Source: an uncultured Actinomycetota bacterium | GTDB taxonomy: Bacteria > Actinomycetota > Actinomycetes > JAHEKZ01 | Length of the DNA: 64,000 nucleotides | Direction of reading: 5' to 3' | Assembly: GCA_963743915.1 (NCBI GenBank) | Contig: CAVURN010000005.1 | Span: 275,358-339,357 of the forward strand | Shown: positions 23,314-57,763 of the stretch, one piece after another | Numbering within the stretch: position 1 is the stretch's first letter | Layout: the number at the start of each line of letters is the position of its first letter | Notes under the pieces: model-generated | Told to the model about the DNA's origin: nothing | The model's input: the letters and a program-made list of their open reading frames with translations, nothing else | The model's database searches: none | Translations under genes and position numbers: made by a program

Positions 23314-23330
23314 GGAGTCCTCAGTGGGCC

Positions 23331-23771: not shown

Positions 23772-23893
23772 CGGCTCACCTTCCACTGGCTGCGTCCACC
23801 CTGCCACTGCCCGGTCGCGTCTGCCCCCACCATGCCGTGGACTGGGTAGGTTGAAACGTGCACCCCGGCGCACGCCCGACACGAGGAGCCGAC

Positions 23894-24238: not shown

Positions 24239-24310
24239 CTTGGCATCGAGTGATCCCCATCAGTTGGCGAGCTGTGTCAACCTCTGGGGGTGGTCCGGCG
24301 ACTCTCGGGC

Positions 24311-25800: not shown

Positions 25801-25896
25801 CGTGGGACCGTCGAGCAGAACGACTGCGGCGGGGGCTGGACACCGCAGACGTGGATCCGGATCCCCGACACCAGCCCTTCGGACACCAGCGGCGAG

Positions 25897-26280: not shown

Positions 26281-26361
26281 GCTGCCAGGCAGCAGACAGG
26301 AGACAGGACCTGTCGGGGGTGCGGGTGTGGCGGCAGCGGTGGACAGCCAACGATTGGCGAG

Positions 26362-26405
26362 TTGCTTGCGGTTTTGGGCCCCGTGATCCCCGAAAAGCGC
26401 AAGCA
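26362..26405 (-). terminator. candidate hairpin downstream of cbs (9-bp perfect stem TTGCTTGCG / CGCAAGCAA plus TTTT/AAAA extension)
   Basis: gTTGCTTGCGgttttgggccccgtgatccccgaaaagCGCAAGCAAtc read directly; no clear U-tract on the minus-sense transcript. Confidence 0.3.
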
Positions 26406-26496
26406 ATCCGCCGGTCTGGCCTTTCTCCACCGACGAGCATCCCGCTGACAGACATCGCCGCGCTGTGAGTCCTCCCAAGGGACACTCGGCGAGCCG

Positions 26497-39048: not shown

Positions 39049-42000
39049 CGGTCGACCAGCACCGCCTCGACGAACTCGGTCACCCACTGGAGCAGAGCAG
39101 CGTCTCGCAGCGGCTCTCCTCCGACCCGTGCGGTCGTCGGTCTCGGCACCAGGATCGTACGGACCGCCGGCTTGACGGTGGTGCCCGGGTAGAGCCGGGT
39201 CAGGCGCAGGGTGGCGGACTCCGGCAGCTCGACCGGGAAGATCCGCACCCTGCTTCCCTGCACCACCACCTCGCTCACTCCGACCGAACGCACGAGCGTC
39301 CGGAGCCGAGCGACGTCGAAGAGCCGCTCGACCGGTTCGGGAAGCGGGCCGAACCGGTCCACCAGCTCGTCACGGACGTCGGCCAGTGTCTGCTCGTCGT
39401 GGGCGTCCGCGAGCCGCTGGTACGCCTGGAGCCGCACCTTCTCGGACGGCACCCAGTCGTGCGGGATGTGGGCGTCCACGGGCAGCTCGACCCGGATCTC
39501 GGCCGGTTCGCCTCCCGACTCCGGCCCCTCACCCTTGAGGGTGGCAACCGCCTCACCGACGAGGCGGAGGTAGAGGTCGAAGCCCACGCCTTCGATGTGG
39601 CCGCTCTGCTCCCCGCCCAGCACGTTGCCGGCGCCACGGATCTCGAGGTCCTTCATGGCGACGGCCATGCCGGAGCCGAGATCGGTGTGCTGCGCGATGG
39701 TGGCCAGCCGGTCGTGCGCCGGCTCGGTGAGCGGTCGTTCAGGTGGGTAGAGGAAGTACGCGTAACCACGGTCACGCCCGCGACCCACCCGACCACGCAG
39801 CTGGTGCAGCTGCGCCAGTCCGAGGGTGTCGGCCCGCTCCACGACCAAGGTGTTGGCATTGCTGATGTCGAGACCGGACTCGACGATCGTGGTGCACACC
39901 AACACGTCGAAACGTTTGTCCCAGAAGTCGACGATGATGCGCTCCAGCGCGTCCTCGGACATCTGACCGTGTGCCACCTCGACCCGCGCCTCGGGAACGA
40001 TCTCGCGGACCCGCGCAGCCGCACGCTCGATGGACTCCACCCGGTTGTGGATGTAGAAGACCTGGCCCTCCCGCAACAGCTCGCGACGGATGGCTGCACC
40101 GATCTGCTTCTGGTCGTACGCCCCCACGAAGGTCAGCACCGGATGGCGTTCCTCTGGAGGCGTGAGGATGGTCGACATCTCTCGGATCCCGCCGAGCGCC
40201 ATCTCCAGGGTGCGGGGGATCGGCGTCGCCGACATCGTGAGGACGTCCACGTGCGTGCGCAGCGCCTTCAGGTGTTCCTTGTGCTCGACGCCGAAGCGCT
40301 GCTCCTCGTCGACGACCACGAGGCCCAGGTCCTTGAAGCGCGTCGTGGCCTGCAGCAGCCGGTGGGTCCCGATCACGACGTCGACGCTCCCGTCCGCCAG
40401 GCCCTCGATCACCTCGGCAGCCTCACGGTCGGTCTGGAAACGGGACAGCGCCTTGACCGTGACCGGGAATGCGGCAAACCGCTCGGTGAAGGTGTTGGTG
40501 TGCTGCTGGACGAGCAAGGTCGTGGGCACGAGCACCGCCACCTGCTTGCCGTCCTGCACCGCCTTGAACGCCGCCCGCACGGCGATCTCCGTCTTGCCGT
40601 ACCCCACGTCCCCGCAGACGAGGCGGTCCATGGGTATCGGCTGCTCCATGTCCCGTTTCACCTCGTCGATGCAGGCCATCTGGTCGACGGTCTCGACGTA
40701 GGGGAAGGCGTCCTCGAGCTCACGCTGCCAGGGAGTGTCCGGGCCGAACGCGTACCCCGGTGCTGACTGACGGGCCGAGTACAGGCGGACGAGCTCGGCC
40801 GCGATCTGCTTGACCGCCTTGCGTGCGCGGCCCTTGGTCTTGGCCCAGTCCGCACCACCGAGTCGGTGCAGCGAGGGGGATTCCCCTCCGACGTACCGGG
40901 TCACGAGGTCGAGCTGGTCGGTCGGCACGAAGAGGCGGTCAGCGGGCTGCCCGCGGCGCGCGGGGGCGTACTCGATCACGAGGTATTCCCGCGTCGAACC
41001 CTGTACCTCGCGACGTGTCATCTCGACGTAGCGCCCGACACCGTGCTGCTCGTGCACGACGTAGTCACCCGGGGAGAGCTGGAGCGGGTCCACCGTGGCC
41101 CGCCGCCGCGACGGCATCCGTCGCATGTCCCGCGTCGACGACTTCTGCCCGACCAGGTCGGTCTCGGTCAGCACCAGCAGCTTGAGAGCGTCGGAGACCA
41201 GGCCGTGCTCCATGACGCCGGTGGCCACCTGCACGACGGAGGCGTCGCGCACGGGGTCGACCTCGGCGACCACCTCGGCGACGACATCGTCGTCACGCAG
41301 CCGCTCGGCGAACCGTTCAGCCGGACCGTGCCCCGCCGTGACCAGCACGACGCGCCACCCGTCCGCGACCGACGCGTGGATGGTCTTCAGCGCCCGGTCC
41401 GTGTCGCCCCGGTACTCATCGGCAGCGCGCAGCGTCGTTCCGGCGGTCTCGTCGTCGGGTCCGCCGAAGGGGCCGACACCCCACCAGGGGAGGCCGCGGC
41501 CGACCGCGGCCGACCGCACCTCGGCCAGCTCTCGGTAGGAGGCCGCCCCCAGGTCGATCGGCGTGCTGTTCCCGGCCGCGGCGTTCGCCCAGGAGGCCGC
41601 GAGGAACTCCTCGCTGGTGCGATGCAGCTCGTGGCTGCGGGTGCGCACCCGCTCGGGGTCGACCACCACCATTGCCGTCGCGTCGGGCACGACGTCGACC
41701 AGCAGCTCCATCCCGTCACCCAGCAGGGGCGACAGGGACTCCATCCCTTCGACGGCGACCCCCTCGGCGAGCTGCCCGAGCACGTCGGCGAGCCCTGGGT
41801 GGATCGCCACGAGTCCGGCCGCCCGACGGCGCACGGTCTCGGTGAGCGGAAGCTCGCGCACCGGCGGCGCCCACACGCCGTGAGGTGCCGTCTCCAGGCT
41901 CCGCTGGTCAGCAGCCTTGAACCACCGGATCTCCTCCACCGTGTCGCCCCACAGCTCGACCCGCAGCGGGTGCTGCTCGACGGCGGGGAACACGTCGAGG

Positions 42001-42569
42001 ATTCCTCCACGGACCGCGAACTCCCCGCGACGCTCGACGACGTCGGCCCGGCTGTAGCCGGAGTCCGCGAGCCGCCGGACGACCTCGGCGAGGTCGATCT
42101 CGTCGCCGGCGTGGATGCGGACCGGTTCCAGGTCACCGAGCCCGGTGACGAAGGGCTGCAGCACCGCACGCACGGGTGCGACCACGACAGCCAGCGGACC
42201 CGAACCGGGGTCGGCCGGGTCGGGGTGCACCAGCCGGCGCAGCACCGCGAGCCGGCGCCCGACCGTGTCGGAGCGTGGTGAGAGTCGCTCGTGCGGCAGC
42301 GTCTCCCAGGAGGGGAAGTCGGTGACGGTCTCCGGGTCGAGCAACGAGCTGAGCGCGGCCACCAGGTCGTCGGCCTCCCGGGTGGTCGCGGTGACGGCGA
42401 GCACCGGCCGGGCGGCACCGTGCATGCCGCGAGCCATCGCGGCCACGATGGCTGCGGTGGCCGTCGACGGGACGGTGAGCTCTCCGCCGGTGCCAGTGGC
42501 GGCCAGTCGCAGGGCCTCGGCCACCGCGGCGTCCTCGGCGACGAGGGGAACCAGGCCGGCCAAGGACAT
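39045..42569 (-). CDS. mfd: transcription-repair coupling factor
   Basis: about 1174 aa; CGDVGYGKTEIA (Walker A), DEEQRFGV, TRG motif, TATPIPRT; ATG 42569 (MSLAGLVPL) with GGGAGGAG RBS. Confidence 0.9.
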   Translation of the reverse strand: MSLAGLVPLVAEDAAVAEALRLAATGTGGELTVPSTATAAIVAAMARGMHGAARPVLAVTATTREADDLVAALSSLLDPETVTDFPSWETLPHERLSPRSDTVGRRLAVLRRLVHPDPADPGSGPLAVVVAPVRAVLQPFVTGLGDLEPVRIHAGDEIDLAEVVRRLADSGYSRADVVERRGEFAVRGGILDVFPAVEQHPLRVELWGDTVEEIRWFKAADQRSLETAPHGVWAPPVRELPLTETVRRRAAGLVAIHPGLADVLGQLAEGVAVEGMESLSPLLGDGMELLVDVVPDATAMVVVDPERVRTRSHELHRTSEEFLAASWANAAAGNSTPIDLGAASYRELAEVRSAAVGRGLPWWGVGPFGGPDDETAGTTLRAADEYRGDTDRALKTIHASVADGWRVVLVTAGHGPAERFAERLRDDDVVAEVVAEVDPVRDASVVQVATGVMEHGLVSDALKLLVLTETDLVGQKSSTRDMRRMPSRRRATVDPLQLSPGDYVVHEQHGVGRYVEMTRREVQGSTREYLVIEYAPARRGQPADRLFVPTDQLDLVTRYVGGESPSLHRLGGADWAKTKGRARKAVKQIAAELVRLYSARQSAPGYAFGPDTPWQRELEDAFPYVETVDQMACIDEVKRDMEQPIPMDRLVCGDVGYGKTEIAVRAAFKAVQDGKQVAVLVPTTLLVQQHTNTFTERFAAFPVTVKALSRFQTDREAAEVIEGLADGSVDVVIGTHRLLQATTRFKDLGLVVVDEEQRFGVEHKEHLKALRTHVDVLTMSATPIPRTLEMALGGIREMSTILTPPEERHPVLTFVGAYDQKQIGAAIRRELLREGQVFYIHNRVESIERAAARVREIVPEARVEVAHGQMSEDALERIIVDFWDKRFDVLVCTTIVESGLDISNANTLVVERADTLGLAQLHQLRGRVGRGRDRGYAYFLYPPERPLTEPAHDRLATIAQHTDLGSGMAVAMKDLEIRGAGNVLGGEQSGHIEGVGFDLYLRLVGEAVATLKGEGPESGGEPAEIRVELPVDAHIPHDWVPSEKVRLQAYQRLADAHDEQTLADVRDELVDRFGPLPEPVERLFDVARLRTLVRSVGVSEVVVQGSRVRIFPVELPESATLRLTRLYPGTTVKPAVRTILVPRPTTARVGGEPLRDAALLQWVTEFVEAVLVDR

Positions 42570-42694
42570 GGAGCGCTCCTCCCTGCGGGTTGCCCAGGCG
42601 CTGCCCTCGAGGCGCAGCACGACGGCCCCGGACATCGTCGATGCCGGGGAGGAGGTCAAGCCTACGGTGCCGGGACGACCCGCGGGACCTCAGA

Positions 42695-45565
42695 TCAACC
42701 GCTCCGGAGGACGACGGAGACAGTGGTCGCAGCCGCCGACTTGCCGGACGCGACCGCGGTGAGGCCTGCGCGAGAGCCGGCCAGGGCCGGGACGCCGTCA
42801 TCAGTGAGCAGCCCCGAGACGCGCACGGTGCCCGGGACGGCCGGGTCGTAGCTGCTGACGGGTGCGGCACGGCTGGTCTGGCCGAGCGGTGGCACCCAGC
42901 CCGTGGTCGTGGACGTCTTGTCCGACCAGTACGAGACGACCCAGGCCCCATCGACGGGCACGCTCACGCCGGGGGTCGTGTGCCCGAAGGTCGCGTCCGA
43001 CGCGGGCTCGTCGGCGGTCGCGACCGGTCCGACCGAGGCGACCCCCGAGTAGACGGCGGTGCTGACGATCGCCCGCGTCGCGACGGTGGTCCCGCCGTCG
43101 GAGAACTCCACGCCCACGGTCCGTCCGGCGTCGGCGGCCGTCGCCCATCGGGTGTACACGACGGTGCGGGTCCCGCTGTCGGTGACGTCACCCCGCTCCG
43201 TCCAGCCACCGAGCGGCACCTTGTCCGCGTCGAGGATGGCACCGGGATCGGCGCTGGTGCCGCCGCTCACGACCATCAGCAGCAGGTCGCCCGGCTCGAC
43301 CGTTTCCGGCAGCGGCCACGTGTGAAAGCGCACCTGCTTGCCCTCGTACGCCGCGGCCGCTCGGAAGGCGACCGTCGTGGCGATCGGCGACACTTCGACG
43401 TCGACCACAGTCGACGCGGAGGCACCGTCGTCATCGGTCACCGTGAGCGTCACCGGGTAGGTGCCGGCCTCGGCGAAGATGTGGTGCTGCGCCGTCCCAC
43501 CGGACGCGGAGGTGCCGTCCCCGAAGCTCCACACGTACGACACGAGGGAGCCGTCGGCGTCGGACGAGGACGTCGCGTCGAAGGTGCAGGAGGTTCCGAC
43601 GCAGGCGCTCCGGAAGGTGGCCGTCGGAGACGCGTTGATGGCGAACGTGGAGGGCTGGGTGGACAGGAAGAGGCCTTTCGCCCGCCAGTCGACGGTGGCG
43701 TTGACGGTGCGCGTCCCGCCTCGGAAACCCTGCGGGCCGAAGCGGATCTTGTGCAGCACGCCGTTGGAGCTGACGTAGTAGAGCCAGCTGCCGGAGAGGA
43801 ACGCCCCCCTCACGGCTCCCGCGTCGACTCCCTTGCCCGCCGATGAGTCGGGCACGGTGTGACGCACCGCGCCGACGACGCCGGACTCGGGGGTGAAGGC
43901 GCGGTAGTACAGACCACCGTCGGACCTCCGGGATCGTGAGTCCGCCCGCGTGTAGTACAGCCGGCCGGTACGGCGGTCGTAGAACATGCTGGTCACGCGT
44001 CGCATGGACGAGCGCAGGTCCACGACGAGCGATCCGCCGCCCAACGGCACGATGGTCTGGGGTCCGAGGCGGGTGCCGTCGAAAGACTGCTTGCGCAGCG
44101 TGCCGTCGTTCCACCCCGTGTAGAGCGTGTCGTCCACCATGAACGCGCCTCTCACGCCCGACCAGGCGACCCCGCCGTCGGCGAGTGCCTTGGCCTGGGG
44201 TCGGGCGGAACCGACGAGGTACTGCGACCGGACGTCGGCGGCGCCGACCGCGGGATCGAGCTGGACGACGTCGCCCGGGATGGTCCCGACCCGGTCGGTG
44301 GGGAGGGGCAGACCCCCGGACCAGGGGAAGGCCGCGAGCCGGTCGCGCCGCTCACCGGCCCAGACGGGGGTGTCCGAACCCGCCCAGAGCTCGCTGTCGG
44401 TGACCAGGAAGTCGAAGACGCCGACCCCTCGGGACCGGGTGGGGTTCCAGCTGAACGGCAGGCCGTTGCGCGTGTCGAGGGCGGCCAGCCCCTCGCGGAC
44501 CACACCGCCCGGTCCGGCCGTGCCCCCGTCCAGCGAGTACGGGTTGTTCAGCCACCGGAAGTGGCCGCCCACGTACGCGACCGGACCGGTCACCTCGACC
44601 GCCCAGAAGGTGTCCCCACCGCTGTGGTCGACCCAGGTGGGCTGCTGCGCTCCCTGAGCGTAGGTCTCCCACCGAGTCGCGGAGTCGCACAGCTTGGTGG
44701 GTCCGCCCAGCCCACCGGTGGTCACGACGACGAAGAAGGAGCCGTCCGGCGCCAGGTCGACGTCGTGCAGATACGAGTCGAAGAATCGGTTGCAGTCGCG
44801 GCTGCCGAACCGGGACGTGCGCCAGCCGTCCACGACGGCATGCCGCCCTGAGGTGTCGAGCACCGCCACCTGCGTCCGCGTGCGCCCTCCGACTGCGGTG
44901 AAGTTCCCGATGGCGACCAGGCGGTCGCCCGCAGGGGTCACGTCGATCTTCCGCACGGTGGTGACGCCACCCTGGTTGACCCCGGAGAACGGCAGGTCGA
45001 CCGCTCGCGTCAGCCATCCAGTCGACGCGTTCAGCGTGGCCAGGCCCCGGCGGGGCACGCCACCGGCCGACGTGAACGACCCCGCGACGTAGAGGCGGCT
45101 GCCGACAAGGCGGAGGTCATAGATCCGTCGGTCGAACGCCGGGCTGCGGAAGGAACCGACCTTCGGGCCGTCGGCGAGGTCGAGCTGCTGCAGCCGACCT
45201 GGGCCGACCCCGTTGATCGTGCGGAAGTCGCCGCCGACGTACACCGACCGGCCGTCGCCCGACAGGGCCAGCGCGTCGACCCGCGGCGCCACCCCGGGGG
45301 CAGAGGCCAGCACGGGGACGAAGGCGTCGCTGACGGCCCCGGTGGTCACATCGAAGGCGAACAGTCCCGTCCGCGGCAGCACGGGAGCGTCGACGCCGGA
45401 CTCCTGCACCTTGCTGAACGTGCCCCCGACCACGACCAGGTCCCCGACGCGGACGATCGCCTGGACGCGCCCGTCGAGCACCCGTGGTGTGTGGTCGAGC
45501 GGGTCGTCGCTTGCCAGCTGCTCGGCCGCGGCGGAGGCGCTGGCCGGTGCGGTCACCGCGCTCAT
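42695..45565 (-). CDS. large secreted protein: beta-propeller repeats (Delta-60/DUF5122-like) + PKD domain + unknown C-terminal domain
   Basis: repeats of type [26 protein letters not shown]; [38 protein letters not shown]...[14 protein letters not shown]; upstream in another frame (from 45674) [36 protein letters not shown] looks like the displaced signal peptide (1-nt frameshift at about 45568). Confidence 0.6.
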
Positions 45566-45912
45566 CGAGCGTCACGAGGGCTGCTGCGACCAGGGCCACT
45601 GCCCCGGCTCTGAGCCAGCGGCCACCCCTCGTCCTCGCCACCTGCGCTCCCCCACCCGTCGTCGGCGCACCCACTCGGCGCGCACTGTTGCCTCGCCATT
45701 ACAGAGCGTGCCGGGACGGTCGGGCGGCGACTGCGGTCGAAAGGGAACCATCGGCGGACGACCTACTTCGTACCGTCAACTCGTGGCTACGCAGCGTGAT
45801 CTGCGGAGAACGCCGCCCGGTGACGCACCCACCCGGGTGACGGCGCTCCGGGCGACGTCGGGGTCTGCGCTCGCACCACGTACGCTGCCGGGGACTCGCC
45901 TGAAGGGACAGC

Positions 45913-47111
45913 ATGGAGACGCACCACCCCGGCCTCACCGACGGCCTTGCGCCGCTCTGGGAGCCCGGGCCGGTCGGCCCGACCCGCCCCTTCCTGGTGC
46001 TGCCCTCCGCCGACGACCCCCGCCTCGTGCTGCCGGCGGGGCGCGGACGGGCCGCCGCCACAGTCCTGCACGCGTTGCGGGACGAGTCGACGGCCAAGGC
46101 GCGCACCCTCTCGTGGGCCCTGCGCGGCGCTGCCCTGCTCCACGTGCGCACCACCGAGCTGCCTGACCCGCCGCTCCTGGCGGCCGTCGCCAGACACCTG
46201 GCACCGGAGAGCGTCGCCGCCGACCTCGTGTACGGCGTCCACCTGGGCCCGCGTCGCGCGAACCGGAAGCCGGTCCTGGCCGTGGCCGGACGGGACGGTG
46301 CGCTCCTCGCCATCGTCAAGTGGGGCATGAACCCGCTCACCGACCGGCTTGTCGCCCACGAGGCGACGGCGCTGCACCAGCTGACCTCCCTGCCCGCGCA
46401 CTCGGGGGTGCAGGTCCCGAGACTCCTCGGTCAGGGGGATTTCGCCGGACACCCCTACGTCGTGCAGTCACCCGTGCCCACCAGCGGAGCGGGTCCGTGG
46501 TCGCTCGACCGCGCCATCGAAGCCCAGGTGGCAGTGGCGACGTCGGGCGGACAGGCGGATGCCGAGGACTACCTCACCCGCTTCGCCGCGGCGTGGCGGG
46601 ACCGACCCACCACCTGCGACCCGGTGGACCGCGACGCCGCCCAGGCGTTCGGGGCGCTGGCGACGACCTGGCTCGGCCACGTCCGACAGTCCTCGCTCGG
46701 GCACGGCAGGTGGCACGGCGACTGGCGTAGGACCAACATGGCCCTCACCCGGGACGGCTGCTCGGTGTGGGACTGGGAGCGGTTCGACAGCGGCGCTCCC
46801 CTCGGGTACGACGCGCTGCACCTCTTCCTCACCGGCCGCGCCGGTTCGGTGCAGGACCTCACCACGCTGCCCGCGGACGTCTTCGCGAACGCCGCGCGCC
46901 TGCTCCGACCGTTCGGCGATCGAGAGCCGCGACGACGCCGAGCTGGTCACCTGCGGCTACCTGCTCGAGCTGGCCGGCCGGTACCTCGACGACGGTCAGT
47001 CGACCTCGGGCGCACGTCTGGGAGACAGTCGCCCACTGGCTGCTGCCCACCCTCACCAGCGTCCTGAAGGAACCCACCACCGGGCACGAACAAGGAGCGA
47101 ACGAGCAGTGA
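45913..47111 (+). pseudogene. aminoglycoside/choline-kinase-like phosphotransferase (APH fold), C-terminus split over three frames
   Basis: HGDWRRTNMAL (Brenner HGDxxxxN), VWDWERF (DxE); after ...RLLRPFGDR continues in +1 frame (SRDDAELVTCGYLLELAGRYLDDGQ) then +2 frame (...VWETVAHWLLPTLTSVLKEP...ANEQ*), whose stop overlaps next gene GTG (GTGA). Confidence 0.55.
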
Positions 47112-47963
47112 GCAGTCTGCGGGGCAAGAGCAGAAGAGCGGCGCGAGCCGCGGCCGACCGGGTCGGCCGGCGGACGTCGTCGCGCCGGGTCCTGCCGACC
47201 ATGCTCATCGTGGGCGGGCAACGGTGCGGCACGACCACGCTCTTCAAGGCGCTGCTCGAGCACCCGGGGTTCGTCGGGCCGACGCTCCGCAAGGGCGTGC
47301 ACTACTTCGACCTCAATGCCGATCGACCCCTGGACTGGTACCGCAGCCACTTCCCCACCGAGTCCAGCGTCGAACAGGATCGCGCAGCGCCAGGGGCACT
47401 CCGTGGTCGTCGGCGAGTCGAGCCCGTACTACATGTGGCACCCGCTGGCGCCCGAGCGGATCGCCACGGCCCTGCCCGACGTGAAGGTCATCGCCCTGCT
47501 GCGTGACCCGGTGGCCCGCGCCTACTCCGCCCATGCCCACGAGCTCGCGCGCGGCTTCGAGACCGAACCGTTCGAGCGAGCACTCGAACTCGAGGAGGAG
47601 CGCCTGGCCGGCGAGGAGGAGCGCCTACGCAGCGGCGCGGTCACGCGCAGCCTCGCGCACCAGCATCTCGCCTACGTCCGTCGGGGGCAGTACATCGACC
47701 AGCTCGAGCGTCTCGAGGCGGCCCTGGGCCGCGAACGCATCCTGGTCGTCGACAGCGTCGCCCTCTGGTCCTCGCCGGAGGAGCGCTGGCCCGAGGTCAC
47801 CCGGTTTCTCGGCCTCCCGGACCACCCGGTGTCGATCGAGCGTCACAACGCCCGTTCGCGCTCTCCCCTGGACGACGCCCTCCGAGAACGTCTCGAGGCG
47901 CACTACGTGCCCTACGACGAGCGGCTGGCCGCCTGGTGGGGACGCACCCCGAGCTGGCGGTGA
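47108..47963 (+). pseudogene. Stf0-like sulfotransferase, single frameshift in a GGGG run at 47393-47396
   Basis: N-part VSSLRGKS...LPTMLIVGGQRCGTTTLFKALLEHPGF...WYRSHFPTESSVEQDRAAP; C-part (ORF 47316 frame) GHSVVVGESSPYYMWHP...IALLRDPVARAYSAHAHE...; removing one G restores APGHSVVVGE. Confidence 0.65.
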
Positions 47964-47968
47964 CGGCT

Positions 47969-48007
47969 GCAGCGGACCGAGGAGACAGCGCGGTCTCTGA
48001 CCGCTGC
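47969..48007 (+). terminator. compound hairpin between sulfotransferase and Alg14-like gene
   Basis: GCAGCGGaccgagGAGACagcgcgGTCTCtgaCCGCTGC (outer 7-bp and inner 5-bp stems); no T-tract. Confidence 0.3.
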
Positions 48008-48161
48008 TGACGACCCACGACTACCGCACGTGCAGGACACCGGACGTCCGGCAGGCGTCACCCGTTTGGCGGCACTTGTGCCAACACCGATCGGACCCCG
48101 CTACCTCCGGTGAGAATTGACCCACCGACCACCTCCCCTTCACCGCGACCGAGGAGCATCC

Positions 48162-48635
48162 GTGCAGGCACTGTCCGACCTCGAAGGTCGCGTGCTGCTG
48201 GTCGGCTCCAGCGGTGGTCACCTCGCCCAGCTCCTCGCGCTGGCGCCGCTCTGGCCGCGGGAACGACGGCACTGGGTCACCTTCGACACCGCGGACGCAG
48301 TGTCCCAGCTGGTCGCCGAGAGCGTGACGTGGGCGTACCACCCCACCACCCGGAACGTGAGGAACCTGGCACGCAACACCGCGCTCGCGCGCCAGGTCCT
48401 CGACGCCGAACGACCCGACGTGATCGTCTCGACCGGAGCGGCCGTCGCGTATCCCTTCTTCCTGCTGGGCCGCGCCCGGGGGATCCCCACGGTGTACGTC
48501 GAGGTCTACGACCGGATCGACAGCCGCACCGTGACCGGGAGGCTCTGCCGTCCGCTGTCGACGCTCTTCTGCGTCCAGTGGGAGGAGCAGCAGCAGCTCT
48601 ACCCGGGCTCGATCGTCGTGGGGCCGCTGCTGTGA
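48162..48635 (+). CDS. Alg14-like glycosyltransferase membrane-anchor subunit (PssD/Cps14F-type)
   Basis: VQALSDLEGRVLLVGSSGGHLAQLLALAPLW...VIVSTGAAVAYPFFLLGRARGIPTVYVE; GTG 48162 after GAGGAG. Confidence 0.6.
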   Translation: MQALSDLEGRVLLVGSSGGHLAQLLALAPLWPRERRHWVTFDTADAVSQLVAESVTWAYHPTTRNVRNLARNTALARQVLDAERPDVIVSTGAAVAYPFFLLGRARGIPTVYVEVYDRIDSRTVTGRLCRPLSTLFCVQWEEQQQLYPGSIVVGPLL

Positions 48636-49099
48636 GCCGCATCCTCGTCACGGTGGGCACCGACTTCCACCCCTTCCAGCGCCTCGTCGACTGGGCCGAC
48701 CAGTTCGCCGAGCAGCACCCCGAGCACGAGGTCTTCACGCAGTACGGCTCAGCCCGTCCGCCTCGGCACGGCGAGCACTCCCGGCTGCTCGACCACGCCC
48801 AGCTGCAGCGCGAGATCGCCCGGGCCGACGTGGTGGTCTGTCACGGAGGCCCGGCAACCATCACCGAGGTGCGGCGTGCCGGTCTCCGACCGGTCTGCGT
48901 CCCGCGCGACCCGGACCGCGGGGAGCACGTCGACGGACACCAGATGCGTTTCGTGCGGCGCATCGAGCGAGGCCGGGATGGTCGCCGCATGCCTCGACGT
49001 CGACGACCTCGACGAGGCGGTCGCCGCCGAGCTGGCCCGGCCACGCCGCGACCCGGGTCAGGCCGAGGACGTGGCGCCGGGCGTCCGGCGCATCCATGA
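48632..49099 (+). pseudogene. Alg13-like glycosyltransferase catalytic subunit (GT28 C-terminal domain; PssE/Cps14G-type), frameshifted
   Basis: GTGA-coupled start; VSRILVTVGTDFHPFQRLVDW...VVVCHGGPATITEV...DGHQMRFVRRIERG, then protein-like continuation AGMVAACLDVDDLDEAVAAELARP...RRIHDLIAEP lies in another frame; C-terminal limit unclear. Confidence 0.5.
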
Positions 49100-50081
49100 C
49101 CTCATCGCCGAGCCTCACCGCGCAACCTTCGACCGACGGCGACGACGACGACGCGCATCCGGGTCATCTACATCGGCGGCCAGGGACGGAGCGGCAGCAC
49201 GCTTCTCGAGCGCGCGCTGGGTGAGCTGCCCGGCGTCCTCAGCGTCGGCGAGATGGTGCACCTGTGGGACCGCGGGCTGCGCGACGACCAGCTCTGCGGA
49301 TGCGGGGAGCCCTTCCACACGTGCTCGTTCTGGCGGTCGGTGGGCGACGTGGCCTTCGGCGGCTGGGACGCCCTCGACGTCGATGAAGCGGTGTCGCTGC
49401 GCTACGCGGTCGACCGCAACCGCTACCTGCCCCTGCTCGCGCGTCCCGGCCTCTCCCGCCGCTACCGGGAGCGCCACGCCCGCTACGTCGCCAGGCTGGC
49501 TCAGCTGTACCGCGCCATCGCCGAGGTCTCCGGCTCACGCGTCATCATCGACTCCAGCAAGCACGCCTCCTACGCGATGACGCTGTCCCAGGTGCCCGGC
49601 CTCGACCTGCGGCTGCTGCACGTGGTGCGTGACAGCCGTGCGGTGGCCCACGCGTGGAGCAAGGAGGTCGCCAGGCCGGAGGCGCTCGGGGTTCCGATGC
49701 CGATGTACGGACCGACCAAGACCGCCGTGCTGTGGGACGTGCAGAACACCTTGATCGAGCGACTCAAGCGTCGCCACCCTTACCTGCGGATCCGCTACGA
49801 GGACTTCGTCGAGGCGCCCAAGGACGTCCTGCTGGCAGCCGGACGGTTCGCCGGGCTCGGGGACGAGGCCTCCACGCTCGACGTTCCTCGACGCGGACAC
49901 CCTGCGGCTGACGCCCTCGCACACGGTCGCGGGGAACCCCATGCGCTTCCTCTCCGGAGAGGTGAGGATCAGGGCGGACCGGTCGTGGCGTTCTGACATG
50001 CCGACCGGCCGGCAGCGTCTGGTCAATGCACTGACGCTGCCCCTGCAGCGTCACTACGGCTACCGATCGGCAGACTCGTGA
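49096..50081 (+). pseudogene. Stf0-like sulfotransferase (second copy), at least two frameshifts
   Basis: RIRVIYIGGQGRSGSTLLERALGELPG...IIDSSKHASYAMTL...LLHVVRDSRAVAHAW (ORF 49253 frame, no in-frame start), C-terminus FLDADTLRLTPSHTVAGNPMRFLSGEVRIRADRSWRSDMP...YGYRSADS* in +1 frame (extra g in ctcgacGttcctcgacg about 49883). Confidence 0.6.
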
Positions 50082-51013
50082 CCATGAGCCCCTTCCCCCG
50101 CGTCGACGTGGTGGTCCCGACCCGCGACCGCCCGGAGATGCTGCGGACCGCCATCACCGCGATCCTGGCGTCGGAGTACAAGGGCGACATCCGGGTCCTG
50201 GTCGTCTACGACCAGTCGTCCCCGGACTCGTCACTGGCGACGGAGCAGTCACTGGGCATCGGCGACCACCGAAGCGTCAGCGTGCTGTCGAACAACCGCA
50301 CACCCGGGCTGGCCGGCGCCCGCAACACCGGGCTGCTGGCAGCGGACGCCGAGCTCGTCGGCTTCTGCGACGACGACGACACGTGGCTCCCGCACAAGCT
50401 GGCGGCGCAGGTGGACGCCCTCGCGGCGGAGCCGGACGCGGAGTTCGTCTGCTGCGGCATCGAGGTGCTCTACGACGGGGAGTCGCACCCTCGGGTGCTG
50501 GACCTGCGCCACGTCACCCTCACCGACCTGGTGCGTGACCGACTCACCGAGCTCCACCCCTCCACCTTCCTCATGCGACGCGCGGCGGTCGTCGAGGGCT
50601 TCGGACTGGTCGAGGAGGAGATCCCCGGCAGTTTCGGTGAGGACTACGAGCTGCTGCTCCGGGCAGCACGTCGGCACCCGATCCTCAACGTCCCCGAGGT
50701 CGGTGTCCAGGTCCTGTGGTCCAGCCGTTCCTACTTCACCGCGCGGTGGCAGACGATGCGCTCCGGTCTCACCTGGCTGCTCGAGCGCTACCCCGAGTTC
50801 GAGGACGTCCCCGCGGGCGAGGCCCGGATCGCCGGTCAGATCGCGTTCGCGGCAGCAGCGGACAAGGACCGGAAGCAGGGTGCTCGGTGGGCGTGGCGGG
50901 CCCTCCGCCGGCGCCCGGTGGAGCCGCGCGCGTACCTGGCGCTCGCCGTCGCCGGTGGGTTGTCTCCGCAGTGGGTTCTCCGACGCCTGCACTCCGTCGG
51001 CCGCGGGATCTAG
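50078..51013 (+). CDS. glycosyltransferase family 2
   Basis: VDVVVPTRDRPEMLRTAITAILAS (GT-A N-terminus), FCDDDDTW (DxD), intact 311 aa. Confidence 0.8.
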   Translation: MTMSPFPRVDVVVPTRDRPEMLRTAITAILASEYKGDIRVLVVYDQSSPDSSLATEQSLGIGDHRSVSVLSNNRTPGLAGARNTGLLAADAELVGFCDDDDTWLPHKLAAQVDALAAEPDAEFVCCGIEVLYDGESHPRVLDLRHVTLTDLVRDRLTELHPSTFLMRRAAVVEGFGLVEEEIPGSFGEDYELLLRAARRHPILNVPEVGVQVLWSSRSYFTARWQTMRSGLTWLLERYPEFEDVPAGEARIAGQIAFAAAADKDRKQGARWAWRALRRRPVEPRAYLALAVAGGLSPQWVLRRLHSVGRGI

Positions 51014-51927
51014 CGGTCGATGATGGTGCGCCACGCCTGCCGGGACGGCGCGTCCCGCAACCGGTAGTCGATGTTCGGCACCTGCGCATCCCAGTACGTG
51101 ACGAACGCGGCGTTCCGCCGGTCGGTGTACCGGGCACACGCATGCAGCCAGCGCGCACGTCGGGTGCCGTCGTCCCCCGGGAGCAGCCGGCTGGCCAGCT
51201 CGGCCACCCCGAACCTGTTCCCCAGTCGACGCGTCGTGCGGTAGGCGGGGCCCATGAGCTTCCGCGGCGCCATGTACTGAGGGGCCCCGCGTGGGCTGTA
51301 GCAGTCCCACCCCATCACGTCGATGAAGTCGCCGGGGTAGTAGGTGCGGACGGAGCGGTTCGAGGAGCGGGCCGTCCAGCACATCAGGATCAGGGTGGGG
51401 TGCAGCTGCGGGTTGTCCACGCGGCGGGCGATCGCGTTGATGTGCCGCCACGCCGCGCGGTACTGGGCTGCCGAGATCAGACCACGCTCGTGGTCGTCCT
51501 CCGGCTCGTGGAAGTACGACCAGAAGGTGGGGCGCTGCTTGGGCGCGTTCCGGAAGAAGGTCCGGAGCTCGTCGTCGACCGCGCCGCTGAGCACCCGGCC
51601 GGGCATCTCACGGAACGAGAGCACCACCGGGCGCCGAAACCCCTCGAGCAGTCGGTTGAAGGTGTCGCGGACGAAGGGCTCGTACACCCGGACGATGTCC
51701 ATGCCCCCGTAACGATCGTCGGACTGCCGCACGGCGGTGCGCCAGTCGATCCCGTCGGACGGGACGCTGGCGCCGAACCGGGTCGACGATCCTCGGCGCT
51801 CCAAGCGTGTCCCGTCGGTCGAGGCCTCCGACTCCGTCGACGTGCTGACGATGAGCGGGACGAGGGCGGCGACGAAGGCCACCGCCAACAGGATCACGGG
51901 CAACGTTCGGCGTGCGTGGGAAGTCAC
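51010..51927 (-). CDS. secreted glycoside hydrolase, GH26-like (mannanase-type fold)
   Basis: signal/TM MTSHARRTLPVILLAVAFVAALVPL; TFWSYFHEPEDD resembling GH26 HE(M)N block, MGWDCY; stop shares CTAG with GT2 stop. Confidence 0.45.
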   Translation of the reverse strand: MTSHARRTLPVILLAVAFVAALVPLIVSTSTESEASTDGTRLERRGSSTRFGASVPSDGIDWRTAVRQSDDRYGGMDIVRVYEPFVRDTFNRLLEGFRRPVVLSFREMPGRVLSGAVDDELRTFFRNAPKQRPTFWSYFHEPEDDHERGLISAAQYRAAWRHINAIARRVDNPQLHPTLILMCWTARSSNRSVRTYYPGDFIDVMGWDCYSPRGAPQYMAPRKLMGPAYRTTRRLGNRFGVAELASRLLPGDDGTRRARWLHACARYTDRRNAAFVTYWDAQVPNIDYRLRDAPSRQAWRTIIDR

Positions 51928-51971
51928 AGGCGAATCCCTTCGTCGGGGTCACTCTGGGGAAGTGGTCGGTC

Positions 51972-52523
51972 CTAGTCGTTGAACTGGGACTGCGCACGGT
52001 CCAGGCCGACGGTCATCAGCGCAGCCACCGCGTCGGCGCACCTCGTCACGATCTCGGGCACCTCGGGCCGCTCGGCGGCTGCGAAGTCCCGCAGCACGAA
52101 CGACGCCGGATCCATCCTGCCAGGCGGACGGCCGATTCCCACCCGAGCCCGGTAGAAGTCGCCGGTGCCCAGCGACCGCCGGAGGGACTTCAGCCCGTTA
52201 TGCCCGTTATCACCCCCGCCGAGCTTGAGCCGCAGCGAACCGAAGGGCAGGTCGAGCTCGTCGTGCACCGCGACCACCCGCTCGGGAGTGACCTTGTAGA
52301 AGGCGCAGAGCGGAGCCACCGCCTGACCGGAGTCGTTCATGTACGTGGTGGGCTTGACGAGCACCACGCGGTGACCGTCGACGCGCCCCTCCCACGTGTG
52401 TGCGCGGGCGCGTCGATGGCTGCGGAACGCAGCACCACCGGCGAGCTCGTCGACCACGAGGTACCCGACGTTGTGACGGTTGCCCGCGTACTCCGGTCCG
52501 GGGTTGCCGAGCCCGACGACCAC
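51972..52523 (-). CDS. pth: aminoacyl-tRNA hydrolase (peptidyl-tRNA hydrolase)
   Basis: [28 protein letters not shown]... Confidence 0.9.
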
Positions 52524-52570
52524 CCAGGGACGGTCGTCGTCGGTGACCTCCGGTGGACGGTTGCGCCGGA

Positions 52571-53212
52571 TCAGGCCGGCGGCTCCACCGTCTCGGCCAC
52601 CACGGTGGCCGCCGCGGCACCTGCGGCCGCCTCGGCCTCGGCAGCCTCGGCCGCCTCGTCCGCAGCAGCCTCGGCCGACTGGGCACCGAGGATGTGCACG
52701 ACCACCAGGTCGGGGTCGGCCACGAGCACCGCTCCGGACGGCAGCGGCACGTCGGAGGCCCGGAGGCTCTCTCCGACTGTCAGACCTTCGACGTCGATCA
52801 CCAGCTCGGACGGGATCTTGGTGGCTTCGGTCTCGATGCCGATGGTGTCGTTCACGTGCTCGAGCAGACCACCAGGGGCGATCTTGCCCTCGGTGCGGAC
52901 CAGCACCTCGACGGTGACCTTCTCGCCGGTGCGGACGGCCACGAGGTCGACGTGCTCGATCGTGTGACGGACAGGGTCTCGCTGCACGGACTTCGGCAGC
53001 ACCAGCTGGGCGCCGTCGTCGAGCTGCAGCGAGAGCAGGGTGTTGGACTTCTTCAGGGCCAGCATCAGCTCGTGTGCCGGCAGGGCCAGGTGCTGGGTGT
53101 CGGCGCCGTGCCCGTACACGACGACGGGGATCTTCTTGTCACGACGCAGACGGCGCGCGGCACCCTTGCCGAACTCCGTGCGGCGCTCAGCGGCGATGGC
53201 GATCTCGGACAC
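52571..53212 (-). CDS. rplY: 50S ribosomal protein L25 / general stress protein Ctc
   Basis: [36 protein letters not shown]...; Ala/Glu-rich C-tail. Confidence 0.85.
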
Positions 53213-53420
53213 GGGCCTTCAGCTCCTGACGACGGTCGGTCGGTGGGCGTTCCGGCGCAGGTCAGCCCGCGCATCCGCGCCAGCACCGCGTCGATCACGG
53301 GCGCCGACCTTCATCTCACAAGGTCGGCACACCCTCGCCGGGACCCGCAGAGTCTAGCCGCGCCTGCGACAGCAGCCCAAATCTGGCCTTCGGGTGACGA
53401 CCATCACCCGGCGTCCTGGA

Positions 53421-54953
53421 TCACCGGGCCAGGTGGCTGCCGTACGTGGTCGTGACCTCGCGCCAGGCCTGCTTGGACGGCTCGTCGAGCAGGCGGTAGT
53501 CGCCCCCGGTGGCCACGGCGTCCCAGTAGCACACGAAGGCGGCGTCGCGTTCGAGCAGCCAGGATCCGATCGATCGCAGCCAGTCACCACGCTTGCTGCC
53601 CGTCGCGTCATCCACGCCGAGTCTGGCTCCTGTCTCGGCGACCCCGAAGGGGAGCCCGAGCTCGCGGGTCGCGGCGAGCGCCTTCCCGTACATGTCCTCA
53701 GGGTTGGCATAGGGCGACGTGGAGTGCGCGTAGCAGTCCCAGCCCATCGCCTCCACCACGTCAGCACCCGGGAAGAAGCTGCTGACGCTGCGGCCCGACT
53801 TCGGACTGGCCGTCCAGCACATCAGGATGACGGTGTTGTGCAGCTGCGGGTTGCCGGCCGCATCGGCGAGCCCCGCGATCCGTCGATAGGCGTCGCGCCA
53901 CTGCTGCGCCGTGAAGTCCCCGCTCTCGACGTTGTCCTCGGGCTCGTGCCAGTACGACCACCAGATGTCACGGTCCCTGGGGGCGGTACGGAACCACTCG
54001 GCCAGGTAGGCGTCGTGCCGCCCGGCGAGCACATCGGACGGGTTGGCCTTGAACGAGACGACGACGGGACCGCCCACCTCACCGGCACGGCCGGGCCACC
54101 GGCTCGGCAGGCCCGGGTAGAAGACGCGCACGACCTCCATGCCGCCGTAGGCCGCGTTGGAGTCGGCCAGCGCCTGGGACCACGAGCGTCCCTCCTGGTC
54201 GACGCTGGCCCCGAACAAGGTGCTGCCGTCCGCCGGCCCCTCGGTCGGGCTGTTCGTCGGGCTCGGCTGCGGCTCAGGGGCGCTGGTCGTGGGGGCGGGC
54301 TGGCTGGGGGTGGGGGACTCGGAGGGGGTCGGCGACGGCGACGAACTCGTCCCCTTGACCGGGTGCACCCGCACGCGGTCCACCTTCAGACCACTCAGCG
54401 AACGGAAGGCGGTCAAGGAGACCTGGAGAGTGCTCCGGGCTTCGCTCGGCTCAGCGAGGAAGGCGACCTGCCGCCAGTTGTCGCTTCCCGCGGTGAAGCG
54501 TTCGCCGGTCACCGAGGCGACCCGGTCGCCCTTCCACTCGTAGAGGCGGAAGGCACCTTGCACCGGGGCTCCGGTGGCGCGGACCCACGCGGACACCTGG
54601 TACTGCACCCCGGGGGCGGAGGTCGGGGCCGTCGCGCGCAGGTCGCGCAAGGTGGCCGAGGCCGCGCGCAGGTGGAGGACCGCCGCCCGTCGACTGCCCC
54701 AGACGCCACCGTCGGTGATGCCCAGCACGTCCCCGCTGCCGCTCGTGACGTCCCAGTCGGTGAAGCCGTGCTTGAACCCGCCGTTGTGCACGAGGTTGGG
54801 CCCGAGCACCCGGCGTCCCAGGGAGTCGGGGTCGCCGACCGGCGCCGCCGAGGAGGGGATCACCACCGCCGCCACACCCAGACCTGCGGTCAGCGCGAGG
54901 GCGGTCGTGACGGCGGCGACGCGGGACGGGGTGCTCGGACTGCGGTTGCTCAT
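53421..54953 (-). CDS. secreted GH26-like glycoside hydrolase with N-terminal carbohydrate-binding (jelly-roll) module and PT-rich linker; paralog of 51010-51927
   Basis: signal MSNRSPSTPSRVAAVTTALALTAGLGVAAVV; linker SSSPSPTPSESPTPSQPAPTTSAPEPQPSPTNSPT; catalytic part IWWSYWHEPEDN...MGWDCYAH collinear with the other copy. Confidence 0.5.
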   Translation of the reverse strand: MSNRSPSTPSRVAAVTTALALTAGLGVAAVVIPSSAAPVGDPDSLGRRVLGPNLVHNGGFKHGFTDWDVTSGSGDVLGITDGGVWGSRRAAVLHLRAASATLRDLRATAPTSAPGVQYQVSAWVRATGAPVQGAFRLYEWKGDRVASVTGERFTAGSDNWRQVAFLAEPSEARSTLQVSLTAFRSLSGLKVDRVRVHPVKGTSSSPSPTPSESPTPSQPAPTTSAPEPQPSPTNSPTEGPADGSTLFGASVDQEGRSWSQALADSNAAYGGMEVVRVFYPGLPSRWPGRAGEVGGPVVVSFKANPSDVLAGRHDAYLAEWFRTAPRDRDIWWSYWHEPEDNVESGDFTAQQWRDAYRRIAGLADAAGNPQLHNTVILMCWTASPKSGRSVSSFFPGADVVEAMGWDCYAHSTSPYANPEDMYGKALAATRELGLPFGVAETGARLGVDDATGSKRGDWLRSIGSWLLERDAAFVCYWDAVATGGDYRLLDEPSKQAWREVTTTYGSHLAR

Positions 54954-55118: not shown

Positions 55119-56093
55119 TCAGGCGTTGCCGTCGAAGAGGCTGGTCACCGAGCCGTCGTCGAAGACCTCGCGGATCGCCCGCGCCAGCATGGGCGCGATC
55201 GGCAGCACGGTGAGCTTGTCGAACCGCTTGTCGTCGGCGATGGGGAGGGTGTCGGTGACGACCACCTCGGAGACACGGCTGTTCTTCAGGCGGTCGATCG
55301 CCGGTCCGCTGAAGATGCCGTGAGTCGCGGTGACGATGACCTCGGCAGCACCCTGGTCGAAGAGGGTCTCGGCGGCCTTCACGATCGTGCCACCGGTGTC
55401 GATCATGTCGTCGACGAGCACGCAGATGCGTCCCTCGACCTCACCGACGACCTCGAAGACCTTGACCTCGTTCGGCACGTCAGGGTCGCGTCGCTTGTGG
55501 ATGATCGCCAGCGGGCTGCCGAGGCGGTCGGTCCATCGCTCGGCCACTCGCACGCGTCCGGCGTCCGGCGAGACCACGGTGATGCGGCTACGGTCCGAGA
55601 CCCGGCTGGCGACGTAGTGCGCGAGCGTCTCGAGCGCGAACAGGTGGTCGACCGGGCCGTCGAAGAAGCCTTGGATCTGCGAGGTGTGAAGGTCGACAGC
55701 CATCAGCCGGTCGGCCCCGGCCGTCTTGAAGAGATCGGCCATCAGACGCGCCGAGATGGGTTCGCGTCCCCGGTGCTTCTTGTCCTGACGGGCATACCCG
55801 TAGAAGGGCGCCACCACCGTGATGCGCTTGGCCGAGGCCCGCTTGAGCGCGTCGACCATGATGAGCTGCTCCATGATCCAGGTGTTGACCGGGGTGGTGT
55901 GCGACTGGATGACGAAGGCGTCGCAGCCCCGCACCGACTCCTCGTAGCGGACGAAGATCTCACCGTTGGCGAAGTCGAAGAGCGACGTGGGACACAGTTC
56001 GGTGTCGAGGAAGGCGGCAACCTCCTCGGCGAGTTCGGCGTGCCCTCGGCCCGAGAAGAGCATCAGCTTCTTGGAGTTCGTCGACTCGATCAT
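55119..56093 (-). CDS. prs: ribose-phosphate pyrophosphokinase
   Basis: [17 protein letters not shown]..., [16 protein letters not shown] (PRPP-binding). Confidence 0.9.
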
Positions 56094-57690: not shown

Positions 57691-57763
57691 GGCTCCCGGG
57701 GGAGGATTCGAACCCCCATTAACGGGACCAAAACCCGCTGTCCTGCCCTTAGACGACCCGGGA
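57691..57763 (-). tRNA. tRNA-Gln (anticodon TTG)
   Basis: acceptor TCCCGGG/CCCGGGA, anticodon stem GCGGG/CCCGT, loop TTTTGGT, T-arm GGGGGTTCGAATCCTCC; CCA not encoded. Confidence 0.85.

Follow-up and report, generated by a model that had tools for sequence, protein, structure and literature searches.

The closest described relative of the locus treated here, a block of nine non-backbone genes in a 64-kb stretch of actinomycete DNA (about 70% GC; called the window below), is the wps-1 cluster of Actinoplanes missouriensis (AMIS_7280-7380, WpsA-K; Tezuka & Ohnishi 2026, PMC13390465). This cluster encodes a family 2 glycosyltransferase (GT2, WpsA), a sulfotransferase (WpsB), a family 26 glycosyltransferase (GT26, WpsC), a DUF4262 protein (WpsD), a family 26 glycoside hydrolase (GH26, WpsE), a methyltransferase (WpsF), Wzx (WpsG), a further sulfotransferase (WpsH), a kinase-like protein (WpsI), Wzy (WpsJ) and Wzz (WpsK), and it is adjoined by a gene for the synthesis of 3'-phosphoadenosine-5'-phosphosulfate (PAPS synthase). 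All wps-1 genes except wpsD are needed for normal sporangia. The predicted product is a sulfated Wzx/Wzy-dependent exopolysaccharide, the sulfation of which "awaits experimental verification" according to the authors, who also state that no Wzx/Wzy cluster with a GH26 gene had been characterised before (PMC13390465). The sole bacterial pathway for a sulfated exopolysaccharide with chemical proof is the synechan (xss) cluster of Synechocystis sp. PCC 6803 (PMC8205485), and sulfated polysaccharides of bacteria are certain from cyanobacteria only (PMC13390465, PMC8205485).

Comparison of the block with these systems and with the corresponding loci of its relatives (labelled L002, L009, L093 and so on) leads us to regard it, with a probability of roughly 0.7, as an ancient and reduced member of an actinomycete cluster family that makes a probably sulfated surface polysaccharide. 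Within this family wps-1 is the one example studied genetically, and the frame breaks found in the block are most likely consensus errors. The genes of the block are the following, with lengths in amino acids (aa) given after repair of the frame breaks where this is stated:

42695-45674, minus strand: secreted propeller/PKD protein (raw open reading frame, ORF, 42695-45565; Pfam PKD_4 and AlphaFold2 model)
45913-47111, plus strand: kinase-like protein, WpsI-like (398 aa repaired; Pfam matches of homologues, motifs)
47108-47963, plus strand: sulfotransferase 1, WpsH-like (284 aa repaired; Sulfotransfer_3/Sulfotransfer_1)
48162-48635, plus strand: PssD/Cps14F-like, Alg14-like protein (intact; Pfam Alg14, NCBIfam PssD)
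48632-50081, plus strand: PssE/Cps14G-like, Alg13-like protein fused to sulfotransferase 2, WpsB-like (about 480 aa repaired; Glyco_tran_28_C and Sulfotransfer_3)
50078-51013, plus strand: GT2, WpsA-like (311 aa, intact; Glycos_transf_2)
51010-51927, minus strand: small GH26-like paralogue, secreted (intact; fold model)
53421-54953, minus strand: large GH26-like paralogue, secreted (assigned by paralogy; signal peptide, N-terminal module resembling a carbohydrate-binding module (CBM), Pro/Ser/Thr linker, catalytic domain)

The gene content listed in the original prediction proved real in Pfam and NCBIfam scans, fold models and homologue sets. The translational coupling proposed there for the plus-strand genes was also confirmed, by GTGA start/stop overlaps at three junctions: kinase-like gene/sulfotransferase 1 (where the GTG start of the latter overlaps the stop codon of the former), PssD/PssE and sulfotransferase 2/GT2. 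GT2 and the small GH26-like gene are convergent and overlap by 4 nt.

An Actinoplanes sp. locus (L090), which was reached via a homologue of the kinase-like protein, matches the published wps-1 list gene for gene. In tblastn and blastp comparisons of its proteins with the window, GT2, sulfotransferase 2, sulfotransferase 1 and the kinase-like protein were matched with E-values from 1e-33 to 1e-89. The identities to the proteins at the corresponding Wps positions are 47% for GT2 (WpsA), 45% for the sulfotransferase 2 domain (WpsB), 49-52% for sulfotransferase 1 (WpsH) and 33-34% for the kinase-like protein (WpsI). The hydrolases are more distant: a hidden Markov model (HMM) of the GH26-like family (A1) scores 41.8 bits on the WpsE-position protein (HMM positions 121-352) and 40.6 bits on a Pfam-GH26 protein of the same Actinoplanes sp. 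(L090/L091), while blastp at 1e-3 gives no match between the WpsE-position protein and the GH26-like proteins of the window, so that the homology is remote. GT26 (WpsC) and the methyltransferase (WpsF) have no tblastn match in the window, and PssD/PssE stand at the corresponding position. By these comparisons the block appears to be a variant of the wps-1 type with five homologous components (WpsA, B, E, H and I), and the original view that it is not a described system has to be given up, given 33-52% identity and the profile match of the hydrolase.

The window and wps-1 thus share a homologous GT2, two sulfotransferases of different subfamilies, a kinase-like protein and a GH26-type hydrolase, and neither cluster contains a priming transferase. 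Also, the sub-order Wzx-sulfotransferase-kinase-Wzy-Wzz is identical in the sister clade of the window. However, there are several differences. The window has PssD/PssE in place of the GT26 WpsC, with PssE fused to the WpsB-like sulfotransferase; it lacks the methyltransferase and the DUF4262 protein, Wzx, Wzy and Wzz, and an adjacent PAPS synthase, whereas in the Actinoplanes sp. locus a bifunctional ATP-sulfurylase/adenylylsulfate-kinase gene and a canonical Pfam-GH26 gene adjoin the wps-1-type cluster (L090/L091, 3727-6657). Furthermore, it has two divergent GH26-like paralogues instead of one GH26, adds the propeller/PKD protein, and differs in genomic location, being wrapped around pth-rplY. 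The organism of the window is probably not sporangiate, and the sporangium phenotype need not carry over. The likeness to xss (PMC8205485) is one of gene content, in that xss is an exopolysaccharide cluster of the Wzx/Wzy type and contains two sulfotransferases of distinct subfamilies. The xss cluster differs in being cyanobacterial and plasmid-borne, in having eight glycosyltransferases including a priming one as well as its own regulators, and in having neither a kinase-like gene nor a GH26.

The kinase-like protein of the window, raw or repaired, has no direct match in Pfam, NCBIfam or PDB. Within its family, 14 of 34 members match the APH profile (PF01636; best E 2.5e-7), and the motifs W-H-G-D-x4-N (HGDxxxxN) and W-D-W-E-R (DWE) are invariant. 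Searching PDB with the family profile gave nothing significant, the top entry being a fructosamine-3-kinase with E 0.6. The motifs and the matches of the homologues suggest an APH/protein-kinase-like fold and hence a putative kinase. An intact orthologue of 398 aa (P0121) is 97% identical.

Repaired sulfotransferase 1 matches Sulfotransfer_3 over positions 2-214 of 216 (E 1.6e-9) and Sulfotransfer_1 (E 2e-9), and its translation contains the PAPS-binding motifs GQRCGTTT and RDPVARAYS. The sulfotransferases had been called Stf0-like, a name that does not fit: the best matches are PF13469 and PF00685, and even at E<=1 the profile Stf0 (PF09037) was not matched, PF13469, PF00685 and PF17784 being the only ones found.

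The PssD-like protein matches Pfam Alg14 (E 4.7e-8) and NCBIfam NF041549 (E 1e-30, 107 bits against a cut-off of 110), and it is 79-86% identical to orthologues of 157 aa in L002 and L005. PssE reaches 62 bits against an NCBIfam cut-off of 120, as scored on the frame-broken fragment. After repair, PssE and sulfotransferase 2 form one reading frame free of internal stops, with Glyco_tran_28_C (E 2e-13) followed by Sulfotransfer_3 (E 4e-7). The same fusion is a single ORF of 480-481 aa in L002 (6171-7616), L005 (12317-13762), L009 (4396-5838) and L093 (1046-2488), whereas in Micromonospora the two are separate genes (L006, 12058-13547). Therefore, the Alg13-type protein and the second sulfotransferase of the original prediction both exist as domains, but they are parts of one ORF of 480 aa in all close relatives. 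The pair resembles PssD/PssE of Rhizobium and Cps14F/Cps14G of Streptococcus pneumoniae (NF041549/NF041548) in consisting of small adjacent Alg14-like and Alg13-like (Glyco_tran_28_C) genes with a translational overlap, and differs from them in scoring below the equivalog cut-offs and in the fusion of the catalytic half to a sulfotransferase. To our knowledge, such a fusion is not a feature of these named families. PssD/PssE-type enzymes and GT26 are second-step transferases, which act on an already primed lipid-linked sugar; the description of the pair as initiating is not in agreement with this family knowledge. The PssE-sulfotransferase fusion is not mentioned in the papers on wps-1 (PMC13390465) and synechan (PMC8205485).

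The GT2 (Glycos_transf_2, E 1.7e-20) had been predicted to be processive. Its NCBIfam matches are all far below cut-off and mostly to non-processive enzymes, with NodC and PgaC/IcaA among the weakest, which argues against that prediction.

The two GH26-like paralogues are 41% identical to each other and have a common set of invariant residues. By direct sequence search neither matches Pfam (E<=0.01), NCBIfam or PDB, and the Pfam GH26 profile PF02156 is absent from both and from all 120 homologues listed, some of which carry PF02018 or PF24517. A search of 5.8 billion proteins with the small paralogue found 173 homologues, nearly all without a Pfam domain and chiefly from metagenome-assembled genomes (MAGs) of actinomycetes and from Micromonospora; the profile of the family found 364 proteins at E<=1e-30 among 1.84 billion representatives. 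The GH26-like proteins form a group of their own, which is nearly always tied to this cassette. A motif HEPED and the glutamate in A-E-x-G are invariant (E132 and E234 across 28 aligned sequences), in agreement with the catalytic acid/base and nucleophile glutamates of clan GH-A; according to the model they would lie on strands 4 and 7. An AlphaFold2 (AF2) model of the small paralogue (mean predicted local distance difference test score, pLDDT, of 87) is a (beta/alpha)8 barrel. The best match in Foldseek is the GH26 lichenase CtLic26A (2bv9/2cit; E 1e-14, template modelling (TM) score 0.71-0.77, about 16% identity), which occupies ranks 2-7, followed by GH26 mannanases and xylanases at ranks 8-18 and then by GH5; rank 1 is 6zpl_C, labelled as a glycine-transporter complex. 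According to the model, the designation GH26-like is therefore correct at the level of the fold, although it fails at the level of the sequence profile. The relation to CAZy GH26 accordingly consists in the barrel fold, the two invariant glutamates and a weak profile match, as opposed to about 16% identity and no match to PF02156. The large paralogue is 57% identical to an orthologue of 515 aa in L002, and its N-terminal module matches CBM_4_9 weakly, below cut-off (E 0.0023).

The propeller protein has a raw ORF of 956 aa. Once the surplus base at 45571 is taken out, it has about 981-992 aa and regains its signal peptide, which is encoded upstream of the frame break. PKD_4 is matched with E 5e-21 and the DUF5122 propeller weakly. 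In the AF2 model (pLDDT 86) the protein is all-beta, with two beta-propellers, a PKD domain and a C-terminal beta-sandwich. Foldseek returned tandem-propeller proteins for it, with the heparin/heparan-sulfate sensor domain of BT4663 on top; this was dropped as a functional clue because the TM score is low (0.15-0.25) and the similarity generic. An intact orthologue of 981 aa (P0241 on L092) is 99% identical. The protein belongs to the system, because full-length orthologues adjoin the cassette in several orders, namely in Actinomadura, Janibacter, Microbacterium, Nocardioidaceae and MAGs of Mycobacteriales.

The housekeeping genes around and within the block are:

39045-42659, minus strand: mfd (Pfam)
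51972-52523, minus strand: pth (Pfam Pept_tRNA_hydro)
52571-53212, minus strand: rplY (Pfam Ribosomal_L25p and Ribosomal_TL5_C)
55119-56093, minus strand: prs (Pfam)
56090-57607, minus strand: glmU (Pfam)
57691-57763, minus strand: tRNA-Gln (tRNA scan)

The nine non-backbone genes fill the interval of about 12 kb between mfd and prs, with pth and rplY embedded between the two GH26-like genes; eno and mazG are further backbone genes of the window (Pfam). Close relatives are the metagenomic contigs L002-L004 (about 67-80% protein identity) and L009 (89% DNA identity). In these the order is prs, GH26-like gene with CBM, rplY, pth, GH26-like gene, GT2, PssE-sulfotransferase fusion, PssD, sulfotransferase, kinase-like gene and propeller gene, every ORF is intact, and the kinase-like protein has 391-393 aa. 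In L002 mfd follows the propeller gene; the contig of L009 ends inside the latter. A MAG of the sister clade (L093) has a propeller protein 60% identical to that of the window, and the same contig (L013) carries a GH26-like gene of 55% identity. Its order is GH26-like gene, GT2, PssE-sulfotransferase fusion, PssD, Wzx, sulfotransferase, kinase-like gene, Wzy, Wzz, propeller/PKD gene, Branch-like glycosyltransferase and mfd, and beyond mfd follow an ORF of 218 aa, mazG, eno, DivIC, DUF501, ppx and DLH, which is the backbone of the window itself. On the L093/L013 contig rplY and pth lie upstream of the cassette, with a further GH26-like gene at the contig start. The pth-rplY pair is embedded likewise in L002, L009, L011-L022 and L042, and in Pseudokineococcus and several MAGs the cassette lies near pth-rplY.

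Wzx, Wzy and Wzz are present in L093/L011-L020 and in Micromonospora. Compared with L093, the window has lost Wzx between sulfotransferase 1 and PssD, where about 200 nt remain (window 47963-48162; L093 3085-4590), Wzy and Wzz between the kinase-like and the propeller gene (window 45674-45913; L093 6625-9863), and the Branch-like glycosyltransferase (PF02485, weak) beside mfd (L093 12964-13944). The gene orders indicate that the lineage of the window, L002 and L009 lost these four genes from the locus. Tblastn with Wzx, Wzy and Wzz of L005 or of the Actinoplanes locus L090 gave no match within the window, PAPS-synthesis genes were not found there either, and no priming-transferase domain was seen among the window ORFs scanned.

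To see the wider distribution, one genome per GTDB species was scanned with the GH26-like alignment, the best 80 loci were kept and the cassette proteins were mapped onto them. An exact-sequence search with the GT2 of the window returned no entry, and at the GH26-like gene the closest GTDB representative reaches 55% identity. Among the 80 loci, GT2 is found in 67, any sulfotransferase in 69, PssD in 45, PssE in 47, the kinase-like gene in 40, Wzz in 55, a Wzy-like gene in 52 and the propeller gene in 19; loci without partner genes are mostly on truncated contigs. The carriers comprise, among others, more than 30 species of Micromonospora, members of Nocardioides, Janibacter and Pseudokineococcus, a Microbacterium, Actinomadura cremea and many MAGs, and the cassette recurs beside genes for Wzx, Wzy and Wzz in many genera. 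This recurrence, above all that of GT2 and the sulfotransferases, supports the idea of one co-transcribed and functionally coherent gene set by which a sulfated glycan is made and trimmed.

In the mechanism that we propose, undecaprenyl phosphate would be primed by an unlinked phosphoglycosyl transferase, the second sugar would be added by the membrane-anchored PssD/PssE pair in place of the GT26 WpsC, and a further sugar by the GT2. The lipid-linked repeat unit would be sulfated by the two cytoplasmic PAPS-dependent sulfotransferases, one of which would be placed at the membrane assembly site as a consequence of its fusion to PssE. The APH-fold protein may phosphorylate a sugar or supply a sugar phosphate. 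After export, the polymer would be cut or trimmed by the two secreted GH26-like enzymes, one of them with a CBM-like module, and bound or organised by the secreted double-propeller/PKD protein. With the genes for Wzx, Wzy and Wzz gone from the locus, the flippase and polymerase functions would have to be supplied from elsewhere, or the product would be shorter.

In this lineage the product might also be something other than a Wzy-polymerised exopolysaccharide: the three transferase genes would then build, and the two sulfotransferases and the kinase modify, a glycolipid, a glycan linked to wall or protein, or a lipid-linked oligosaccharide that is short and sulfated. This would agree with the fact that the window, L002 and L009 have no Wzx, Wzy or Wzz at the locus while the remaining genes are under purifying selection, and with the lack of any homologue of the sister clade's three proteins in the 64 kb. 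However, both endo-type GH26-like enzymes and the propeller protein, all of them secreted, have been retained and fit an extracellular polymer best, and a flippase and a polymerase can act from other loci, the visible part of the genome being 64 kb. We therefore consider a short glycan unlikely as compared to a polysaccharide.

The state of the genes themselves has to be considered as well. Eight frame breaks lie in the block, all within 45571-49883 (4.3 kb):

45571: extra base, propeller gene
46918 and about 47025: extra bases, kinase-like gene
47376: extra base, sulfotransferase 1 gene
48969, 49112, about 49152 and 49883: extra bases, PssE-sulfotransferase 2 fusion

The frameshifts reported in the original prediction are thus present, in four of the nine non-backbone genes. 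Frame changes were read against L002, L005 and L009, and the sites were resolved by DNA alignment. At seven of the eight the window has one base more than whichever of L092 (99%), L008 (97%) and L009 (89%) covers the site; the eighth, at about 49152, lies in a surplus of 4 nt in the variable linker between PssE and sulfotransferase 2, with a net shift of +1. None lies in a homopolymer. L092, which is 99.0% identical over 4.87 kb, shows exactly one gap against the window, namely the base at 45571. Removal of all eight bases yields stop-free ORFs of orthologous length, with no nonsense mutation or other lesion left. The ratio of non-synonymous to synonymous substitution rates (dN/dS) against L009 is 0.08-0.20 for the repaired genes and 0.07-0.17 for the intact PssD, GT2 and GH26-like genes. 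All cassette genes are under purifying selection.

Two genes outside the block are broken too. The fatty-acid desaturase gene (plus strand) has a +1 insertion at 58727, one extra C in comparison to L005, and ppx (minus strand) is broken near 34843, where positions 3-54 and 62-272 of the Ppx-GppA profile are found in different frames with an offset that fits +1. All ten frame breaks detected in the window thus fit +1; DNA alignment resolved eight of them, each as an extra base, and none needs a deletion. Four of the ten sites (45571, 46918, 48969 and 58727) lie within 6 nt of ATCGAG/CTCGAT, compared with a background of 1.9% of positions, for a motif picked post hoc. This context may mark a context-dependent, perhaps methylation-related, base-calling error of a long-read assembly. 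In the MAG MFD09730.bin.1.8 (L005, 16754-17726), in L033 and in L058, cassette genes are recovered by tblastn in several pieces (two for the kinase-like gene, three for sulfotransferase 1), and frameshift-type assembly errors seem to be common in long-read MAGs of this group. A DUF255 gene suspected to be split (7092-9155) is a single intact ORF. The stretch of the window at about 22400-27000 has a GC content of 0.66-0.68 against about 0.70 elsewhere and contains, at 25168-26109, short plus-strand segments in alternating frames without a Pfam match; it may be another disrupted or foreign region.

One could read these breaks as the sign of a recent pseudogenisation, in which the operon became useless after the loss of Wzx, Wzy and Wzz and is now being inactivated. 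Such a reading would account for eight breaks in four of nine genes next to unbroken mfd, pth, rplY, prs and glmU, and for the absence of three genes from the locus that the sister clade possesses. However, natural decay is expected to give mixed indels, with deletions dominating in bacterial pseudogenes, and not ten breaks that all fit +1, of which the eight readable ones are single insertions outside homopolymers. Nor would one expect that removing eight bases leaves no nonsense mutation or further lesion, that the broken genes have dN/dS values as low as the intact ones, or that the unrelated ppx and desaturase genes carry the same kind of shift; the proximity of four of ten sites to ATCGAG/CTCGAT, although this motif was chosen post hoc, likewise suggests base-calling error. 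In addition, the reduced layout with intact ORFs is also found in L002 and L009, and therefore the reduced cluster is maintained by selection. Pseudogenes are for these reasons quite improbable. The frame breaks are probably single-base consensus errors and the genes intact in the organism, and the notion of a locus in decay is not upheld, as the frameshifts behave like consensus errors (extra bases absent in relatives, repairable ORFs, low dN/dS).

A recent, lineage-specific island inserted horizontally between mfd and pth-rplY/prs-glmU, as first proposed, is very hard to maintain: for it speak that the cassette lies elsewhere in the genome in Micromonospora and Actinoplanes and that in Mycobacterium its genes are presumably outside the core neighbourhood, but the same order between mfd and pth/prs is found in L002, L009 and L093, pth-rplY lies close to the cassette in several MAGs and in Pseudokineococcus and inside the cluster across a whole clade, and no mark of insertion is seen in composition or at the borders. 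The GC content of the block (0.70-0.74) is inside, at the upper end of, the range of the window (0.66-0.74). No integrase, no tRNA at the block borders and no flanking repeat were found, and a repeat search over the block returned the paralogy of the two GH26-like genes alone and no mobile-element signature. The shared order between mfd and pth in relatives is the outcome that the original prediction itself had named as refuting an insertion. Gene order thus points to an old resident of this chromosomal site and not to a recent insertion.

Several points weigh against the reading of the block as a reduced wps-1-type cluster with intact genes. The Wps names were assigned via an Actinoplanes sp. 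locus that fits the published description and not via the A. missouriensis sequences. Sulfation lacks chemical proof even for wps-1, according to its authors. The locus lacks genes for Wzx, Wzy, Wzz, a priming transferase and PAPS synthesis, none of which was found in the 64 kb, and a Wzy-dependent polymer is therefore deduced from the relatives only. The kinase-like protein of the window has no significant direct match in Pfam or PDB. Finally, eight of the ten breaks detected lie within 4.3 kb, a concentration that suits a dying operon better than errors spread uniformly.

Outside the block, the window encodes a large PAS-GGDEF-EAL protein of cyclic di-GMP (c-di-GMP) signalling (9185-12394, plus strand) and a methyl-accepting chemotaxis protein of 941 aa (19601-22426, minus strand). 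These two proteins make it probable that the organism is motile or chemotactic. This is in agreement with lineages such as Actinoplanes, Kineosporia and Nocardioides, which combine swimming stages with matrix polysaccharides.

The system is of interest because sulfated bacterial polysaccharides are rare. The Actinoplanes study of 2026 raised the possibility of such a polysaccharide for the actinomycetes from a single genome (PMC13390465). The present analysis adds that the core cassette of GT2, two sulfotransferases, kinase-like protein and GH26-type hydrolase occurs in Micromonospora, Nocardioides, Janibacter, Pseudokineococcus, Actinomadura and many uncultured lineages, and that it exists in at least two variants, one with PssDE and one with GT26 as the second-step transferase. 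In one clade the PssE-type transferase is fused to a sulfotransferase, and in one lineage the cassette has long been situated around pth-rplY and has diverged to about 55-60% protein identity. Culturable carriers of the cassette and specific enzymes are now available to experimenters, who should be warned that what looks like decay of the locus in this sequence probably arose in the assembly. More tentatively, the cassette may be a machinery shared by many actinomycete genera for a sulfated, possibly phosphorylated and chemically undescribed extracellular polysaccharide. It could comprise sulfation at the membrane of a repeat unit still linked to its lipid, which the fusion of glycosyltransferase and sulfotransferase would imply, a hitherto unrecognised family of GH26-related hydrolases, and a dedicated tandem-propeller protein for binding the glycan. 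The lineage of the window would then be a natural experiment, with a cassette that remains under selection after the loss of its own Wzx, Wzy and Wzz.

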